Below are positions 40,676-62,870 of a DNA stretch of 64,000 nt, piece by piece. The stretch is from a virus (lineage: Duplodnaviria; Caudoviricetes). The translations under genes and the position numbers were made by a program. The notes under the pieces are model-generated. The model saw only the letters and a program-made list of their open reading frames with translations, had not been told where the DNA came from and did no database searches. The stretch lies in the IMG/VR virus record IMGVR_UViG_3300042691_038938, one strand, 5' to 3'. Position 1 is the first letter of the stretch, and every line of letters starts with the position of its first letter.

Positions 40676-41416
40676 TTAATCAGAATAGATTTTAGAATAG
40701 AGATCAGACATTAAGTCTATCATCTCTTCTATCGTACCTTCCCTTCTTAGTTCCTTGAAGACTAAATTCTCGACTGAGAACTCTCCTCCTGAAGCAAGAC
40801 CTGACTTCCGGTCAGCTAATACCTTCCTTTTGAGTCTCTCAACATACTCATACAGGATCTTAGCTTCCATTCCGGAGATAGACTTTGCTCTCTTCTTCAT
40901 CATCTCTACTTCTGCCTGAATCACTCTCTTCTTTTCAGAAACGTCCTTTTGATCGATCTGTGGAGGATTGTATTGTGGAACTATTATCCACTTTCCTTTA
41001 AGAAGAGAATAGAGACCTGAAGCGGTGTGTTGTTCGTCTTTGTGTTGTACATAGCATTCCACATCATGTCCTCTAAGGACTACTGGATGCCGTTGGTTCC
41101 ACATAAATCTCTGACCATCCAATGCCTTTCTTACTAAATCGATGTTTGAGTCGACTTGTGAAAAATCAACTATTAAGTGAACATCTAGGTCAGAGTCACG
41201 ATTCCAGTTATAGTTAGCCAACGAGCCAGTCAGCTGTACGTCAATGATCGGAACATCGAGCTTTAAGGATTCCCAAAAGTCCTTGGCTATCTGTAAGAGA
41301 GTCTTTCTGATCTCAGGCTTCATTTGATTTTCCTCCCATATCTTTGGACAGAGATCCTTATGATACTCAACCTTTTCGTTGATCCACTCGCTAAATTTTC
41401 TAGCTCGATTTTTCAA
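40676..41416 (-). CDS. Pol-beta superfamily nucleotidyltransferase
   Basis: DVQLTGSLANYNW..SDLDVH (hG[GS]..DxD), VECYVQ, GEFSVENLVFK; TTG start. Confidence 0.88.
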   Translation of the reverse strand: MKNRARKFSEWINEKVEYHKDLCPKIWEENQMKPEIRKTLLQIAKDFWESLKLDVPIIDVQLTGSLANYNWNRDSDLDVHLIVDFSQVDSNIDLVRKALDGQRFMWNQRHPVVLRGHDVECYVQHKDEQHTASGLYSLLKGKWIIVPQYNPPQIDQKDVSEKKRVIQAEVEMMKKRAKSISGMEAKILYEYVERLKRKVLADRKSGLASGGEFSVENLVFKELRREGTIEEMIDLMSDLYSKIYSD

Positions 41417-46642: not shown

Positions 46643-47254
46643 TTATTTTACATAATTGTAATATTTATAAGTAAGCTCTTTTCTGTGCTCTAATCCATTA
46701 GTTCCTCCATTAATTCTCTTTGTTAGAGCTAGGATTGCCGCATCAGTTATTCCTTGATCACAGATGGTCCATAGCTTGTTTCGGTCAAAGAAAAACATTG
46801 CAGACTCAAAAGCATATGTTGTTGCGACTAAGTCAGGGTTTTCCATTATCTCAGGTTTCTTCAAATAGTCGGAGAAGTTCTTATAATTGGATTTTCCTGT
46901 CAACTGTAGGGCACCTCTTCCTCTATATTTCCAGCCGTCTCCTGATGTCTCATCCCCATTACCCATTCTGCTCGCATAAACTCTATTAGCAATCTTTTCA
47001 GGTTGTCGAGCATAGGACTCTTCAAGCGTTCCAGGAAAATACTTTCCAAAGGTTCCTTGTAATCCTTGAGCCGAATAATTTAGGTTTTCACTAAACGCCT
47101 TGAATACTCCAGTCTCATGTGAGGTTTGAGCAAAGAAGTGAGCTGCTCTCACCGGAGTTAGCTTATAATAAGCCATCGCGGCCTTCATTGTTCCAGGACC
47201 AAACGCACCATCGGTAGTAGTTCCTATCTTTTCTTGTAAACTTTTTAAACTCAT
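46643..47254 (-). CDS. Glycoside hydrolase family 19 endolysin
   Basis: DGAFGPGT PG-binding-like start, AAHFFAQTSHETG, ENLNYS, YRGRGALQLTGKSNY, TKRINGGTNGLEHR. Confidence 0.93.
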   Translation of the reverse strand: MSLKSLQEKIGTTTDGAFGPGTMKAAMAYYKLTPVRAAHFFAQTSHETGVFKAFSENLNYSAQGLQGTFGKYFPGTLEESYARQPEKIANRVYASRMGNGDETSGDGWKYRGRGALQLTGKSNYKNFSDYLKKPEIMENPDLVATTYAFESAMFFFDRNKLWTICDQGITDAAILALTKRINGGTNGLEHRKELTYKYYNYVK

Positions 47255-48986: not shown

Positions 48987-49307
48987 CTAGTCTCTAAACT
49001 TTCCTGGAAAGATCTGTCTCCATTCATGACCCTTCGGTATGAATTTCTTCTTGACTCCAAAGATCTTGTCCTCTCCTGGATCACAAGCATTCTCACCATT
49101 CCACTTGAATCCGTTGCGACATGCCCAATTCTTCATGAATATGGTAAAGGGTTGACCTGTCACAAAGGGAAACCTTACTCCAGACTCGTTATCAATTTCC
49201 TCAATCTTTCCGTGAGTCATCTTAATTGTAATAGTTCTTCCCTGTCTCGATGTAAGGACTATGACTTCTTCTCTCATCCAGCTTTCGTATAGCACAACGT
49301 GTTTCAC
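48987..49307 (-). CDS. Hypothetical protein
   Basis: MKHVVLYESW; coupled to the cyclase gene. Confidence 0.65.
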   Translation of the reverse strand: MKHVVLYESWMREEVIVLTSRQGRTITIKMTHGKIEEIDNESGVRFPFVTGQPFTIFMKNWACRNGFKWNGENACDPGEDKIFGVKKKFIPKGHEWRQIFPGKFRD

Positions 49308-49309
49308 TA

Positions 49310-50011
49310 TTAAATCTTTATTTTATATGCAGTCGTTTTTGCCACTCCCTTTAGGTTTCTTAGAGGTTCGCAAGAGTGTAACTGTAATTCTGAAAGAAGT
49401 CTACCGCTTCTTCTACGTTTACCCTCATAACATCTCTGCTGATAGTCAATGATCTCTAATTTACGACTCTTCTTAGAAACTAGATCCTCTATCCTTTTCT
49501 CCTCCTCTTTAGGTAGAGCTTCAGTAAAGCTAAAGGTCACGTTTCCAGGTTCAGAAACAGTCGACTCCATTCGAGAAGCAGTGTTTACCGTGTTACCGAA
49601 GAAGTCCCATAGTTTTTTACCTTGGATGTCTGTCTGCTTTTTATATAGAGGTCCCCAGCAGATCCCAAGTCGAATCGTCATGTTCTTATCCTTAATCTTG
49701 ATAGGGTTATTCTTAAGGTCCTCCTGTATCTCCATGCCTGCCTCTACCGCTCTTAGTAAGGAGTCCTTGCCCTCGAAGCTGACCATGTAACTATCACCGA
49801 TAGTCTTTACGATCATGCCCTTGAACTTTGTGACCACCTTTGTCATTCGCTTATTGTGCTCTTCAAGAGCATTGAACATGCCAGACTGATGTAGCTTCCA
49901 AAGCTTAGAGCTTGACTTAACGTCAGTGAACAGGATCGCCTGCTCCTTCTCTTCAAGTTTCTTTAGAGAGTCAATGCTCTCCCAGATAGGATAAGATACT
50001 AAGTATTTCAT
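49310..50011 (-). CDS. Class III nucleotide cyclase, adenylate-specific residues
   Basis: ILFTDVKSS, VKTIGDSYM, IRLGICWGP, DFFGNTVNTASRMES. Confidence 0.92.
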   Translation of the reverse strand: MKYLVSYPIWESIDSLKKLEEKEQAILFTDVKSSSKLWKLHQSGMFNALEEHNKRMTKVVTKFKGMIVKTIGDSYMVSFEGKDSLLRAVEAGMEIQEDLKNNPIKIKDKNMTIRLGICWGPLYKKQTDIQGKKLWDFFGNTVNTASRMESTVSEPGNVTFSFTEALPKEEEKRIEDLVSKKSRKLEIIDYQQRCYEGKRRRSGRLLSELQLHSCEPLRNLKGVAKTTAYKIKI

Positions 50012-50014
50012 GTC

Positions 50015-50344
50015 TTATTTGGGCCCAAATGTTTTTATCTTCTTGAGACCGTGTCTCTCTAAAAACTCAGAAGGAACTGCCTCTTCGATGATTGTGTGTA
50101 ACTGTGATGCTAGCATTTCTTGATAAGTGGTCTCGTTTACATTAACAAAGCAGAACCAGTGAGTCGCAGGAAGCTCTCCTGTCTCAGACAAGGGAATAGT
50201 TAAATGGTCTACTGAAAACTCAGGGTCTTTCTTTTTCTTCAACTCAATGATGCGGTCTGCTGATTCGCGTTTAGGCAAGACACCAGCTGATCTCTTTCTA
50301 GCTTCAACTACATTCTCATTTTCACATAGTATGCATAGTCTCAT
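50015..50344 (-). CDS. Hypothetical protein
   Basis: Probable start MRLCILCE at 50344, avoiding overlap with the upstream gene. Confidence 0.6.
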   Translation of the reverse strand: MRLCILCENENVVEARKRSAGVLPKRESADRIIELKKKKDPEFSVDHLTIPLSETGELPATHWFCFVNVNETTYQEMLASQLHTIIEEAVPSEFLERHGLKKIKTFGPK

Positions 50345-50360
50345 ATACTTAATATTTTTT

Positions 50361-51284
50361 TTAGTAGCTAAATAGCGATAGTATCGATGTACCTTGACTC
50401 TCAAGGTTCAGGTTCTTTATGTATGAGACATAATACGGCGCAAGAGCTCCGCCCGTCTCAGTATCCACCTTAAAGAGTCCAAGGTTAGGATCTCCATCTA
50501 GTTCAGAGTCTGCAAACACTATCGCAGAGTAAACTGTGCCTCTGTGCTCGACTGTGCTGAATACTCCAAGTATCAACTCCACTCTAGTCTCACTAGGAGA
50601 AGGAACGAGTATGTTAGAATAGATAAAGTCGCCTGCATCTATATCAAAAGGCCCTATGATTATATCTGGCCCAGCATACGCTATCGCCCATGGAGTTCCA
50701 TCATACAGAAAGAGGTTTCTAAGTAGGTAACCTGTCACGCCGTCATCGACTTCAGATACTTCAGTCACATCGACCGTTTCGGCTAATTCGTTCAGTGTCA
50801 CTCTAATGATGCTAGACACTCCAGTCTTCTTGAAACCGTTATCTAGATAGATAAAACTCCCATTACCTTCATAATACAGAGAGCTTGCTCCCTTTGTCGC
50901 ATAATCGTTGATGTTATTATCAAAGAAGGTAAACTCTCTGGTCTCCTTGTCGATTCGTATGAAATATACTTCTCCACCAAAATCAACCGCTGCGTATAAA
51001 CGATCATCGTCTGTGTTTAGGGTGATTACGGTCAGATCAGGAAAATTCTCGAAGTTGAATGGCCAATTGGCTTCAGTTCGGTCTACTGTGTATATTAGAC
51101 CATCGAATGAGACTCCAAATAGTCCCTCCAATGGATCATATCCGCCGCCGCTACCTGCTGCGCCAACTCCGCCTTGTGACTGCATCTTGATTCTTATTGC
51201 TTGCTCAAATAGAGCATCCTGTTCTAGCTTTGCGCGAAGAGCTCTTTGTTCGGGCGTCTCGTTTCCCCAATTGATGAATGACAT
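50361..51284 (-). CDS. Putative virion surface protein: conserved N-terminal anchor plus beta-rich (propeller-like) domain
   Basis: MSFINWGNETPEQRALRAK shared with the 62687 ORF; Gly linker; beta-strand-rich C-terminus. Confidence 0.65.
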   Translation of the reverse strand: MSFINWGNETPEQRALRAKLEQDALFEQAIRIKMQSQGGVGAAGSGGGYDPLEGLFGVSFDGLIYTVDRTEANWPFNFENFPDLTVITLNTDDDRLYAAVDFGGEVYFIRIDKETREFTFFDNNINDYATKGASSLYYEGNGSFIYLDNGFKKTGVSSIIRVTLNELAETVDVTEVSEVDDGVTGYLLRNLFLYDGTPWAIAYAGPDIIIGPFDIDAGDFIYSNILVPSPSETRVELILGVFSTVEHRGTVYSAIVFADSELDGDPNLGLFKVDTETGGALAPYYVSYIKNLNLESQGTSILSLFSY

Positions 51285-51304: not shown

Positions 51305-51931
51305 TTATTTATCCTGAAAGTGTCGCTGTATTCGTTCGCTTAGCCTAATTCTAGGATCCGACTTACTTCGTCCCAACTCCTCGTACTCTAACATGAATCC
51401 AAAACTAAGCAGCACTCTTCTACTCTTAAAAGGATTTGGTGTCCAGTGCTTGTATAGACTGGCTTCAAAACAATAGAGATCAGTCTCTTCAACGTTTACT
51501 ATCTCCTTCTCTATTGCGAACTCGTAGGGTCCTGAGAGCACACTCACGTTACACTTATAGTTTATGAGTCCGTCAAAGCCGGCATCATAGTGCGCTCCAA
51601 TAGTTCCTCCCTCGTCCATGTCAACTATCTGCAAGAAGGAATTCTTGTTTGGAATCCCTACTTCTTTGCAGACACTCTCAGCGATGTCGCGAAAAACATT
51701 AGGTATCTCTGTCTGGACGACTGCACCCCCAGCTTGGTATTGGGAGATCTTGCCCGAGATCTCATTCTGACTCAGGTCAAACATGCAAGAAAAGCCATTT
51801 AGCTTTCCTATGAGCTCTTTAAGATGAGGATTAGTTAAGTCTCCATCAGACCTTAAAGAATTAACGAAGTTTAGGATCTGATTCCTTTGTCTCTGAGCTA
51901 GGAATCCTTTGTGTAATAGGTGATTCGACAT
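51305..51931 (-). CDS. 2OG-Fe(II) oxygenase
   Basis: GAHYD (HxD), YKHW, RVLLSFG. Confidence 0.85.
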   Translation of the reverse strand: MSNHLLHKGFLAQRQRNQILNFVNSLRSDGDLTNPHLKELIGKLNGFSCMFDLSQNEISGKISQYQAGGAVVQTEIPNVFRDIAESVCKEVGIPNKNSFLQIVDMDEGGTIGAHYDAGFDGLINYKCNVSVLSGPYEFAIEKEIVNVEETDLYCFEASLYKHWTPNPFKSRRVLLSFGFMLEYEELGRSKSDPRIRLSERIQRHFQDK

Positions 51932-51967
51932 AATAAAAGCGTGTTATCTACTTTTATTTATAAAAGC

Positions 51968-51995
51968 AAAAAGGATCTCATTGGAGATCCTTTTT
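51968..51995. terminator. Bidirectional Rho-independent terminator
   Basis: AAAAAGGATCTC-ATTG-GAGATCCTTTTT. Confidence 0.88.
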
Positions 51996-52021: not shown

Positions 52022-52348
52022 TTATTGTGCTTCTACTGGGATAGCTGCTTCCAGTTCTGCTATGAATTCCTCAAGAATCGTTGCGTCCACTTCTGAGATC
52101 TTAACTAAAAATGAAGTCTCAGCAGTAGTATCCTCTGCTCTAACTCCTAAATATCGAACTGACTCTCCATTAAAGATGTGGATAACATGATAGTCAGTAA
52201 GAGTCACATCTTCAGGTTTAAAAGTCTTGACATGGTCAACTAGAGCAGTAAGTTTAGTCATGGTGTCAGCTTTTATTGTACCTTTTTTCTCTCCGATAAG
52301 CTGAACATCCCCAAATCCAAAAACATGGATAGTATTAAATTTTGCCAT
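52022..52348 (-). CDS. Hypothetical protein
   Basis: 108-aa ORF between GATAAATA (52365-52372) and a terminator. Confidence 0.7.
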   Translation of the reverse strand: MAKFNTIHVFGFGDVQLIGEKKGTIKADTMTKLTALVDHVKTFKPEDVTLTDYHVIHIFNGESVRYLGVRAEDTTAETSFLVKISEVDATILEEFIAELEAAIPVEAQ

Positions 52349-52386
52349 TTTGAAAGTTTTTTATTATTTATCTTAAACTAAAATAA

Positions 52387-52411
52387 AAAAGGACTCAGCA
52401 AGAGTCCTTTT
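52387..52411 (-). terminator. Rho-independent terminator of the zinc-ribbon gene
   Basis: AAAAGGACTC-AGCAA-GAGTCCTTTT with an A run giving a U tail on the minus strand. Confidence 0.85.
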
Positions 52412-52433: not shown

Positions 52434-53192
52434 TTATACTTTAGTTCCGCAGTTAGGGCAGAACTTCCAGCTGGATTTTTTAAGACGCGAGCCGCAATCA
52501 GTGCAGTAGTTTCTAATCTCTTTAAGATCGACTGGTTTTTTGGACTCTGGCAAGATCCTGATAAAGACTGAATTGCTTGCCCAGAAATTATATTCTGAGT
52601 TGTCCTGACCGAATTCTTGGTCAGAAGACTCTCCCTTCTCAGTTCGGCCAGTCTCAAGGGATCCTGCGATCGGCATTGAAGAGGTGACCATTGACGAGTT
52701 TGCCCCAATGACATCGTTCAGTGAAAAACCTAAAGTAGGATTAGAATTAGAATAGTAGACTGTGTTGACTGTTGATCCGCCGAATGGAGGATATGAGTCA
52801 TGCGTCCAAGTAGTATTGAACCCACCTGTCAGCTTGATGAATTCATCATAAAACTCTATTTTTACTCTACCGTTTTCTCTAGTTGCCTCCTTCGATTCAG
52901 CTGAGTTCTCGACTTCATAAGTCTCAAAGATAAACTTTTTTGGCTCATCGATCCATCTTTCTAAAAAGACTCTCTGGCCAGGTTTCACCACGATTCCAGT
53001 CGATGAAATAAGTTTTTCATCGATGTAGATCTTGGCAAGCACCTTTGATTTTTTGGGATTGTAAAGCTCTATCTCAAAGTGAGTCCCGTCTTTAAGATAG
53101 ACTTTGTTATCGTATTGTTTCATACGATTTCTGTTCACTGCAATGTGTGCAGTAGGAGACAGTGAGTCCCCTTTAATTGATGTGTAATTCAT
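52434..53192 (-). CDS. Conserved phage protein with C-terminal zinc ribbon
   Basis: GIVVKPGQRVFLERWID..KF.FETYEV; C-terminal YCTDCG...WKFCPNCGT. Confidence 0.8.
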   Translation of the reverse strand: MNYTSIKGDSLSPTAHIAVNRNRMKQYDNKVYLKDGTHFEIELYNPKKSKVLAKIYIDEKLISSTGIVVKPGQRVFLERWIDEPKKFIFETYEVENSAESKEATRENGRVKIEFYDEFIKLTGGFNTTWTHDSYPPFGGSTVNTVYYSNSNPTLGFSLNDVIGANSSMVTSSMPIAGSLETGRTEKGESSDQEFGQDNSEYNFWASNSVFIRILPESKKPVDLKEIRNYCTDCGSRLKKSSWKFCPNCGTKV

Positions 53193-61034: not shown

Positions 61035-62687
61035 TTAAACTGTTCCTACTTGTAAAGATCCTTGAGCTGAGCTAAATGGATCGTTTGTGCTATAAGCGAA
61101 TCCCTGCGTTCCTGATGCGGAGTTACCATTTCCGCTGTTGTCATTCAATAGAGCGCTTTCTGTTGTTCCTTGAAACAATAGAAGTTTAACAGTCGGTAAA
61201 GTTGGGACGGTGAATGGTGCAGCAGGTGACGTGAATCCAGCTGTTGAATACTGCGCGGTGTCTGACCATCTAAAGTTACTTATGAATCCGTCGAGCGAAG
61301 AATTAGGCTCGTTACCGTATCCTATTGCTAAAGGCAAGCCTTGACTCGGTATTGGGTCGGGGTACGGATTTGATGCAACATTTATACCATCGATAAAGAG
61401 ATCAATATTACCACTTGTTCTCATTGCGCATATATGATACCATTGTCCTAGTGTAGGTGTAAATGACCCAACCGACCTCTGATCACCGTTTGCCCAGAAA
61501 ATGATTTGATTAGTTTGAAAAGATATAGCATTGGCAGCAGTCGGAAAGGCACCAAAACTATACGGACGAGGGGAGGTGCCGAAGACGTCTAGTTGATTAA
61601 AATTAACAAACATCTCGATCGTAAAATCACCCGTGATATCGAAGTCTATGCTTGCTGGAATACTAAGGTCCGACACCAGAATATTAACGTCTACCGTCCA
61701 CCCATTTCCTTCTAGAACTTCTTTGGCCGCAAGACCAATTTCACTCGGCGCAGCATTAGTAACTCCAGATAAATCAACATATCCATTCGATACCCCGTTA
61801 GTACTTAAAGCAACTAAGATGTTATCTACAGCTTCTTCCGTTAGAGCCCCATCATCCACATCCACAGATTCACCATCACCAAGAGGCTGGGTATTTGATA
61901 TAATTACATTTGTGATATCATCGTTATTACTTAGATCAAACCCTCGTAAAGAAGGCAACATTGATAAGTCAATACTAGTAATATTGCAATCATCAAAATC
62001 TATATACTGAAGGTCATTTAAACCAGTCAAATCTGGAGTTCCAGCAGAAAAATCACTGTCATCAAGATAAAGAAATTCTAATGAAGTACAACCTGAAACA
62101 TTAACACTTGTTAATGATGGCGCCTCTGTATCAAGATCATCACAATCACTAATATCAATATATGTAAGATTAGTCATTCCTGAAAAATCTACGCTTACTA
62201 ATGAATTGTAGTCTGCTCTAAATTCTTGTAAATTGGCAAGGGTTTGTAAACCAGTTATTGATACTAAAGATGAATAATTATCATCCCAACCTGGAAAATC
62301 CAACTGTAATACTTTAAGAGGATCATCAAATGTAACTTTAACTGTGTACTCTCCACCTTCATCATATGTATGTTCTTCTGAATAGAATCCTCCAGAGCCT
62401 GAACCTTCATATGTATTACCGTCGCCCCAATCAATAGTAAATTCGATTGGTTCATTTGTAGAAGTAAATTCAATTCTAAAGTCAAGTTCTTGTGTTGTAT
62501 TTACTACAAATTGTAAGCCGGTTGGCGGCACACTCCCTCCGCCGGCGGCCCCGCCAAACATGGTATTTGTTCCACGGTTTCTTGCCTGACTTAGCCTAGC
62601 TGCCTGCTCTAACAGGGCATCTTGCTCAAATTTTGCACGAAGAGCTCTCTGCTCCGGCGATTCACCTCCCCAATTGATGAATGACAT
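61035..62687 (-). CDS. Putative virion adhesin: shared N-anchor, PKD-like domain, leucine-rich repeats, LamG/ConA-like domain
   Basis: Probable start MSFINWG at 62687; IDWGDG..HTYD (PKD); LxxLxxLxxxxNxL repeats; GDFTIEMFV..WYHICAMR..LFIDG..GFISNFR (LamG). Confidence 0.85.
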   Translation of the reverse strand: MSFINWGGESPEQRALRAKFEQDALLEQAARLSQARNRGTNTMFGGAAGGGSVPPTGLQFVVNTTQELDFRIEFTSTNEPIEFTIDWGDGNTYEGSGSGGFYSEEHTYDEGGEYTVKVTFDDPLKVLQLDFPGWDDNYSSLVSITGLQTLANLQEFRADYNSLVSVDFSGMTNLTYIDISDCDDLDTEAPSLTSVNVSGCTSLEFLYLDDSDFSAGTPDLTGLNDLQYIDFDDCNITSIDLSMLPSLRGFDLSNNDDITNVIISNTQPLGDGESVDVDDGALTEEAVDNILVALSTNGVSNGYVDLSGVTNAAPSEIGLAAKEVLEGNGWTVDVNILVSDLSIPASIDFDITGDFTIEMFVNFNQLDVFGTSPRPYSFGAFPTAANAISFQTNQIIFWANGDQRSVGSFTPTLGQWYHICAMRTSGNIDLFIDGINVASNPYPDPIPSQGLPLAIGYGNEPNSSLDGFISNFRWSDTAQYSTAGFTSPAAPFTVPTLPTVKLLLFQGTTESALLNDNSGNGNSASGTQGFAYSTNDPFSSAQGSLQVGTV

Positions 62688-62744
62688 GGTATCAAGTTTA
62701 TTTGTTTTATTTATCTTTTCGGAGATCTTTAGTATAATAGCTAC

Positions 62745-62870
62745 ATGAAAAATCAAAATATTTACCGATTATTGGTTCAATTTTCGCTTATTGTCGGAAT
62801 AGTCCACCTTGCCTCCCAAGGAATGGAGGGTTGGGGCTGGCTTATTATTGCATTATTTTTAACCCTATAA
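62745..62870 (+). CDS. 41-aa membrane peptide absent from the ORF track
   Basis: MKNQNIYRLLVQFSLIVGIVHLASQGMEGWGWLIIALFLTL; TATAAT 6 nt upstream. Confidence 0.6.
   Translation: MKNQNIYRLLVQFSLIVGIVHLASQGMEGWGWLIIALFLTL

Follow-up and report, generated by a model that had tools for sequence, protein, structure and literature searches.

A predicted stand-alone adenylate cyclase with a possible capsid-targeting-type leader in a T4-related jumbo phage

A cyclase gene without a sensor domain

IMG/VR virus record IMGVR_UViG_3300042691_038938 derives from an uncultured freshwater jumbo phage related to T4. Within the 64,000-nucleotide stretch of it that we analyzed (hereafter, the window), a gene on the minus strand encodes a small class III nucleotide cyclase, whose N-terminal peptide resembles in part the tags that direct proteins into the T4 head. 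Here we describe the gene and its family, and consider whether the enzyme may be packed in the phage head and injected into the host. The gene and the parts of its product are as follows.

49310 to 50011, minus strand: cyclase gene, 233 codons plus stop (open reading frame list and translation; PF00211 match).
49979 to 50011, minus strand: leader M1-E11 (MKYLVSYPIWE), proposed to be a diverged capsid-targeting-type tag with an I9-x-E11 cleavage motif (model, codon comparison, pattern match).
49940 to 49978, minus strand: spacer S12-Q24, a short helix linking leader and strand 1 (modelled as helix 9-17).
49313 to 49939, minus strand: cyclase homology domain, residues 25-233, with D30, K69, D73, R114, D136, N143 and R147 (invariant columns, Foldseek, homodimer model).
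49394 to 49411, minus strand: RSGRLL motif, residues 201-206, in a long loop between the last strands (alignment and model).

The protein has a predicted mass of 27 kDa and a computed isoelectric point (pI) of 9.5. It was matched by PF00211 (Guanylate_cyc) over residues 22-161 (81.2 bits, E 9.3e-23; curated cut-off 21.9), and no other Pfam family matched in the scan. All the motifs named in an earlier note on this DNA (FTDV, VKTIGD, IGDS, WDFFG and NTVNTASR) were located in the translation, with FTDV at 28-31 (D30), VKTIGDS at 68-74 (K69, D73), WDFFG at 135-139 (D136) and NTVNTASR at 140-147 (N143, R147). In an alignment of 95 homologues, D30, K69, D73, R114, D136 and R147 were invariant, and N143 was at least 90% conserved. 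The complete class III cyclase domain claimed in the note is thus borne out by the profile match, the full set of catalytic residues, the six invariant columns and the fold model described below.

An in-frame TAA lies two codons 5' of the cyclase ATG and the upstream gene ends with its stop codon 3 nt short of the cyclase start, which leaves no fusion at the N-terminus. This upstream stop, the one cyclase domain in the model and the sole Pfam match agree with the note that the protein has no sensor domain.

Predicted fold, dimer and substrate

The AlphaFold model of the protein (predicted local distance difference test, pLDDT, 87; predicted template modelling score, pTM, 0.82) contained a single cyclase domain, with the beta-alpha-beta-beta-alpha-beta core of the class. 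The C-terminal third, which falls outside the Pfam match, was modelled as helix 5, the last strands of the fold and the long loop insert, with no second domain. The top Foldseek matches were 5oyh, 1wc1 and 3r5g (probability 1.00, E about 1e-12, template modelling score about 0.8 by target), and the identity to solved structures was only about 17-22%. The best match is a rhodopsin guanylate cyclase that was switched to ATP by Glu-to-Lys and Cys-to-Asp replacements, the same pair as found here. Sequence matches to solved structures were led by adenylate cyclases, namely T. brucei GRESAG4.1 (aligned with its counterparts at K69, D73, D136, N143 and R147) and M. avium Ma1120 (at K69, D73 and D136).

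The base is specified by Lys plus Asp in adenylate cyclases and by Glu plus Cys in guanylate cyclases. The adenine-type pair that the earlier note assigned was confirmed as K69 and D136, given their invariance and their alignment with the T. brucei and M. avium enzymes. ATP is the likely substrate because of this pair, the adenylate cyclases among the structural neighbours, and the score of the general cyclase profile (81 bits), against 41 bits for the best profile of PycC, the cyclase of Pycsar, a system that gives resistance to phages by way of a pyrimidine cyclase.

A homodimer modelled with ATP and Mg scored 0.83, against 0.01 for the best control. In the calibration of this score, 20 of 30 solved one-chain pairs and 1 of 23 single chains came up to that mark. 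At least 80% of the contacts agreed between runs and the partner pLDDT was at least 83. The modelled interface (residues 33-46, 66-72, 123-143 and 221-224) is that of the canonical head-to-tail dimer; the high score may thus only mirror likeness to solved cyclase dimers, or their memorization by the model. As the protein has no regulatory domain and its dimer model is confident, the enzyme is predicted to be probably constitutive. No cyclic nucleotide monophosphate (cNMP)-binding domain was found in the relatives' genome fragments G001-G003, a weak negative given that each is at most 38% complete; with no such receptor there, the target would be host proteins that bind cyclic AMP (cAMP), or the ATP pool.

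The N-terminal leader and its relatives

The earlier note took the N-terminus as one 25-residue leader. It is better divided into the 11-residue peptide M1-E11, of which residues 1-8 had pLDDT below 50, and a helical spacer of 13 residues leading to strand 1. In 41 of the 66 tagged homologues, the tag Glu is 14 residues away from the cyclase core.

The capsid-targeting sequence of T4 is MKTYQEFIAE (PMC8442874), in which targeting depends on residues 4 and 7, and cleavage by the prohead protease on residues 8 and 10 (PMC9026906). The processing feature is present in the cyclase, as I9-W10-E11 ends an 11-residue N-terminal peptide as the (I/L)-x-Glu rule for peptides of 10-20 residues requires. 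To place this leader among other N-termini we compared the proteins of the window. A strict T4-like pattern was found at 7 of 88 N-termini versus 4 of 772 internal windows (p 2e-5), and a looser 'processing' pattern at 17 of 88 versus 29 of 772 (p 5e-7). About 15-18 proteins of the window are tagged, and the cyclase leader fits the looser pattern only.

Tags were common across the cyclase family. Of 116 homologues, 71 have leaders that fit the tag pattern and another 18 a hydrophobic-x-Glu; no leader is present in 23, and 4 fall elsewhere. The tag Glu is at position 10-14 across the family, and the peptide of most phage members ends in [ILV]-x-Glu. We also scored the homologues with a window tag profile (a position-specific scoring matrix), which was built from the other tagged proteins of the window only and is independent of the cyclase family. 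Among 56 distant homologues, 31 scored above the 95th percentile of the null and 18 above the 99th. The targeting aromatics of T4 are present in distant members (e.g., P0039, P0040 and P0046), and the leaders MKRFKDFINE and MKRFSTYINE match T4 position for position, the aromatics (4 and 7), the Ile (8) and the Glu (10) included.

The tag state was clustered on a family tree built without the leader columns, with 5-7 changes versus about 24 when labels were shuffled. The 27-member clade that includes the window's cyclase is uniformly tagged, in a compressed form, [FY]-x-[ILV]-[FW]-E-[SN], that holds across most of the clade. Among the window, L001-L003 and L007 (contigs with related cyclase genes), codons 1-12 showed 4-7 synonymous and 0-2 replacement changes, and SYPIWES was invariant. 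Because this segment stayed unchanged while synonymous changes accumulated, selection acts on the leader peptide. An RNA- or DNA-level signal behind the conservation was ruled out, as the changes are synonymous.

The capsid proteins of relatives offer a comparison. One alignment column of their N-terminal propeptide holds SINE/S, PIFE/N, PIFE/Q or NILE/S (slash, proposed cut), and the cyclase has PIWE/S. SINE and PIFE alternate at this column, so I-N-E and I-F-E are interchangeable there, and the column is probably a maturation site. In these propeptides (L033-L036; L015, 19899-21671) PILE/G is found around residue 23, and the SINE, PIFE or NILE site around residue 54. Both (I/L)-x-Glu sites are candidate maturation cuts, which could calibrate the specificity of the protease. 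We read these comparisons as pointing to a tagged ancestor of the phage members and to a diverged form in the clade of the window's cyclase, with the cleavage part intact and the targeting part uncertain.

The RSGRLL loop also varied with the family. R201, S202 and R204 were at least 90% conserved family-wide, and residues 200-209 were disordered in the model (pLDDT below 50). In a subgroup without the C-terminal insert (P0107, P0115 and P0121; L032, 1339-2025), RSGRLL directly follows the N-terminal tag, which we read as a natural relocation of a short functional element. The motif may bind phosphate or a partner.

The tagged set of the window includes another enzyme, a 246-aa protein at 40676-41416 on the minus strand (KNRARKFSEWINE) with a weak NTP_transf_2 match (21.8 bits).

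A family of viral mini-cyclases

A search of 5.8 billion proteins found 562 relatives of the cyclase. Nearly all of the 120 matches listed have 200-240 residues, and a single close fused relative was found among longer proteins (P0141, 550 aa, on a 3.5-kb contig), so the family is essentially stand-alone. Many members are on contigs of 100-280 kb, several of them with phage hallmarks nearby, such as gp32, UvsY and UvsW beside P0107. With 50,697 phage records as the search context, tblastn of the cyclase protein found one uncultured 634-kb phage only, and megablast of the 12 kb around the gene gave no match to these records.

Of four leaderless members examined, three adjoin hallmarks of eukaryotic viruses (Rpb1 or Rpb5, ubiquitin, ankyrin, F-box leucine-rich repeat). 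These three contigs, L009, L010 and L014 (carrying P0116, P0103 and P0087), look like giant eukaryotic viruses by gene content. We found no description of stand-alone phage or giant-virus adenylate cyclases in the literature, the coverage of which was incomplete and is no proof of novelty. Pelagiphages reportedly carry a different, sensor-bearing class III cyclase (a Curli-FecR-CHASE2 adenylate cyclase cassette). The sequences described here apparently make up a large, undescribed family of viral "mini-cyclases" of about 220 aa.

Mobility of the gene and head genes of relatives

The copies of the cyclase in L001-L003 are 89-93% identical and lie near a gp23-type capsid gene and a T4-type prohead protease gene, two genes after the major capsid gene. 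In L001 the terminator of the major capsid gene is followed by a DUF5856 gene with its own promoter-like box (see below) and then by the cyclase. Between the window and these contigs, nucleotide identity of 80-82% extends from the ATG (or at most 10 nt off it) to the stop, and the flanks are unrelated. The gene is absent from a complete 271-kb relative. Given the identity limited to the gene and the relative without it, the cyclase is an accessory, mobile cassette.

L007 (IMG/VR record G004) is syntenic with the window over 43.7-60.9 kb, and in G004 the genes for an S77 protease and a gp23-type capsid protein lie about 48 kb away from the cyclase. The prohead protease family PF03420 was detected above the cut-off in G001-G003, G004, G005 and G007. 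The capsid protein of L001 is closest to those of huge uncultured phages, Prevotella Lak phages, Tenacibaculum phage pT24 and a Flavobacterium phage; these neighbours fit a host in the Bacteroidota, which is probable.

The S77 domain takes up no more than the N-terminal 150-190 residues of its protein, which is about 660 residues long (L001, 1861-3834; L029-L031). The C-terminal part of this protein had no family match and may be a fused scaffold or core domain.

Transcription unit and neighbouring genes

The features around the cyclase gene are as follows.

51306 to 51312, minus strand: late-type box closest upstream (GGATAAATAACTAAAA), with 22 nt between it and the 307-aa gene (word count and position).
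50361 to 51284, minus strand: 307-aa gene, the first after the box at 51312, with a product that starts MSFINWG; no family match.
50015 to 50344, minus strand: 109-aa gene directly upstream of the cyclase; no family match.
48987 to 49307, minus strand: 106-aa gene directly downstream of the cyclase (2-nt gap), with a product that starts VKHVVLYESW (open reading frame list).
51955 to 51961, minus strand: second late-type box, 24 nt before a 208-aa gene and just after a hairpin (position).
51968 to 51995, minus strand: terminator-like hairpin closing the preceding unit (hairpin scan).

The word ATAAATA was seen 39 times in the window versus 14 expected, mostly as [GA]ATAAATAA located 7-28 nt before start codons. 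This box resembles the T4 late promoter TATAAATA. The box at 51306-51312 is the probable promoter of the unit that holds the cyclase, judging from its sequence and place, and it is followed by the 307-aa gene, the 109-aa gene, the cyclase and the 106-aa gene in this order. On the cyclase strand, terminator-like hairpins were detected at 52413-52385 and 51995-51968, each with a box after it, and no terminator-like site was detected between 51961 and the end of the 106-aa gene.

In general, tagged genes were more often preceded directly by a box (10 of 18) than untagged genes of the window (18 of 70, p 0.02). Among relatives, the cyclase start of L007 follows a hairpin and a box by 7 nt, and that of L008 follows TATAAATAA by 17 nt; a box also precedes the prohead protease gene in L001 and L030.

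A terminator hairpin, a GATAAATAATAAAAA box and a start codon form a reusable cassette (window 52348-52396; L001, 5550-5598), seen as a 49-nt stretch with 82% identity between unrelated gene contexts in two phages. Such hairpin-box cassettes may mark the joints where genes such as the cyclase are exchanged.

Other genes nearby were also of note. An MSFINWG-ETPEQ N-terminus is common to three otherwise different proteins (window 50361-51284 and 61035-62756; L001, 6723-7325, p200), one of which has leucine-rich repeat, PKD and laminin-G domains. This N-terminus has the look of a shared anchoring module, which might belong to fibres or receptor-binding proteins. A 250-aa conserved protein ending in a zinc ribbon is encoded just upstream of the cyclase region in both syntenic phages (window 52434-53192, minus strand; L007, 8724-9476). 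An untagged endolysin of the glycoside hydrolase 19 type (PHROG 181, E 1e-62), encoded at 46643-47254 on the minus strand, has a late-type box of its own.

A proposed course and its alternatives

We propose that the gene encodes a minimal, sensor-less class III adenylate cyclase, which would pair head to tail as a homodimer, have two symmetric active sites and make 3',5'-cAMP from ATP with no need of a signal from outside. Its first 11 residues would descend from a capsid-targeting tag of the T4 type. The protein would be made late and drawn into the assembling prohead, where the T4-type (S77) prohead protease would trim it after Glu11 (I-W-E/S), leaving a mature protein that starts at S12. 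The mature enzyme, computed at 25.5 kDa and pI 9.5, is basic, and T4 internal proteins are highly basic (PMC8442874). It would be ejected with the DNA into the next host, and cAMP would be raised, or ATP drained, from the first moments of infection.

The analysis itself shows the fold, the full catalytic set with its Lys/Asp pair, the single domain, the family-wide tags, the late-type unit and the protease in relatives. From these we infer the product, the constitutive activity, the packaging, the cleavage, the injection and the effect on the host. Packaging and injection form a reasonable hypothesis carried by family and context evidence, which we place at about even odds. Taken as a whole, from minimal cyclase, late mobile gene and tag-derived leader through packaging, trimming and injection to a rise in cAMP, the course could equally well be right or wrong in our judgement. 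A broader claim is more tentative, and we hold it with somewhat less than even confidence: that a T4-related jumbo phage packs a constitutive adenylate cyclase by means of a T4-like tag and injects it with the DNA, that this would be the first ejection protein to produce a second messenger, and that the enzyme belongs to a new family shared by jumbo phages (tagged) and giant eukaryotic viruses (untagged).

Several observations weigh against the proposed course. In this copy the T4 targeting register has no aromatics, with Val5 at Glu-6 and Pro8 at Glu-3, and aromatics are instead found at Glu-4 and Glu-1. The leader scored 1.8 bits on the window tag profile, a value reached by 7.9% of random internal 22-residue windows and by 13.7% of untagged N-termini, so the leader alone is no significant match (p ~0.08). 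In the near group (P0001-P0037) only 7 of 37 members were above the 95th percentile and 1 of 37 above the 99th. Of the capsid-targeting-like character that the earlier note gave the leader, this copy keeps the I-x-E cleavage part only. The cyclase is the third gene after the nearest box, with no box directly 5' of it in the window, and the box is taken as late by analogy with T4 and because it precedes head genes. Isolated cyclase domains are sometimes weakly active. The Lys at the specificity position is also found in one clade of uridylate cyclases, so ATP is not certain (PMC11224242). Since the profile test of the leader was not significant, the tagged status of this copy rests on family and context evidence.

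These points fit a real adenylate cyclase that acts only inside the infected cell, late, on metabolism or lysis timing, and is never packaged, its leader being a relic or an aid to folding or dimerisation. The gene is indeed inside an operon, among neighbours without a known function in the virion, the leader has not retained the targeting positions, and complete relatives do without the gene, indicating that it is not structural. Against a purely intracellular role, SYPIWES is invariant under synonymous change, and the compressed form of the tag is kept across most of the 27-member clade. The I-x-E also ends 11 residues from the Met, within the 10-14 of the family, PIFE is found at the probable maturation site of the relatives' capsid, and the cyclase sits in the head gene cluster of L001-L003. 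On balance we regard an enzyme confined to the infected cell as unlikely, though it deserves to be taken seriously.

The product could also be a nucleotide other than cAMP (cGMP, cUMP, cCMP or another), which would jam or pre-empt Pycsar-type defence signalling of the host. Five PADLOC PycC profiles matched the protein, the best at 41 bits, and pyrimidine cyclases share the class III catalytic motifs, with specificity residues that vary by clade and include Lys in one clade (PMC11224242). However, the general cyclase profile scored twice as high, the invariant K69/D136 are the adenylate pair, the best sequence matches among solved structures are adenylate cyclases, and neither here nor in relatives is the gene linked to a cNMP-binding, TIR or membrane effector. 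We thus consider a different product improbable. With PycC profiles at half the general score and no effector or receptor linked to the gene, the interference with cyclic-nucleotide immunity suggested in the earlier note was not supported. Membership in the PycC proteins of Pycsar was rejected, given the phage context and the lack of a neighbouring cNMP-gated TIR or membrane effector in the window, L001, L007 and L008.

Relatives among jumbo phages encode a defence-type, CapV-like patatin phospholipase (L007, 10704-11663, the same as in L016-L018; L019-L026). In L007/G004 the patatin gene starts 1 nt after the cyclase stop, and its product matched the PADLOC phospholipase 'Effector' profile PDLC00758 at 227 bits and the NCBIfam model CBASS_lipase, named for cyclic-oligonucleotide-based antiphage signalling systems (CBASS), at 180 bits, below the 200-bit cut-off. 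The cyclase could on this basis be the signal half of a pair with the phospholipase, serving superinfection exclusion or lysis control, with the effector lost or located elsewhere in the phage studied here. The adjacency is however confined to one phage (L007 = L016-L018). In L023 and L025 the patatin gene is followed by a homologue of the 106-aa gene and no cyclase is present, at six other patatin loci none lies within 4 kb, G005 and G006 have a patatin gene and no cyclase, and the window holds no patatin gene. CapV-type lipases are known to respond to cyclic dinucleotides and not to cAMP, which also counts against such a pair. We find this pairing very improbable, and, as it is restricted to one phage, treat the patatin gene as a neighbouring cassette and not as a partner. 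The product of the window's 106-aa gene is 73% identical to that of the gene 3' of the patatin gene in L007. A CBASS-like module of cyclase and patatin was rejected as a conserved unit, the linkage being absent from the window and from eight other patatin loci.

Comparison with known systems

The cyclase shares with class III adenylate cyclase domains (Spirulina CyaC, 1wc1; P. aeruginosa CyaB, 3r5g; M. avium Ma1120, 4wp3; T. brucei GRESAG4.1, 1fx2) the fold, the metal Asp pair, the Lys/Asp pair, the Asn/Arg transition-state pair and a predicted head-to-tail homodimer. It differs from them in being encoded by a virus, in lacking any sensor, membrane or regulatory domain, and in having the RSGRLL loop insert and a tag-like peptide at the N-terminus.

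The likeness to the T4 proteins IPI, IPII, IPIII and Alt, whose tag is cut by gp21, is in a short I-x-Glu peptide about 10 residues from the Met on otherwise unrelated proteins, in phages with an S77 protease (here, the relatives), in late-type units and in basic cargo. In contrast to T4, the cargo here would be a signalling enzyme, both targeting aromatics are missing in this copy, and the putatively tagged proteins are more numerous (about 15-18 in the window).

PycC proteins are likewise small class III cyclases, often single-domain, with a part in phage-bacterium conflict, and their profiles matched weakly. They are however encoded by the host beside a cNMP-gated effector and have other specificity residues, whereas the protein studied here is phage-encoded, has no linked effector and carries Lys/Asp. 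The bacterial class II cyclase toxins (CyaA, anthrax EF, ExoY) are delivered to flood a target cell with cAMP, need a host activator and have eukaryotic targets. The likeness to them is in concept only, without homology, as the Pfam scan matched only the class III family here.

Implications

If the enzyme is not injected, the gene would still be an uncharacterised, widespread viral auxiliary gene that targets cAMP signalling, and its compact, regulator-free product would be useful for biochemical work. If it is injected, the phages would deliver a second-messenger synthase, beyond the proteins that protect DNA or modify RNA polymerase, and control of the host through cAMP would begin ahead of all phage gene expression. 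The family also provides a natural experiment, as the same small enzyme is tagged in phages with a T4-type head protease and untagged on the contigs, three of the four leaderless ones checked, that look like giant eukaryotic viruses. This split supports the idea that the cargo of phage heads may be readable from sequence.

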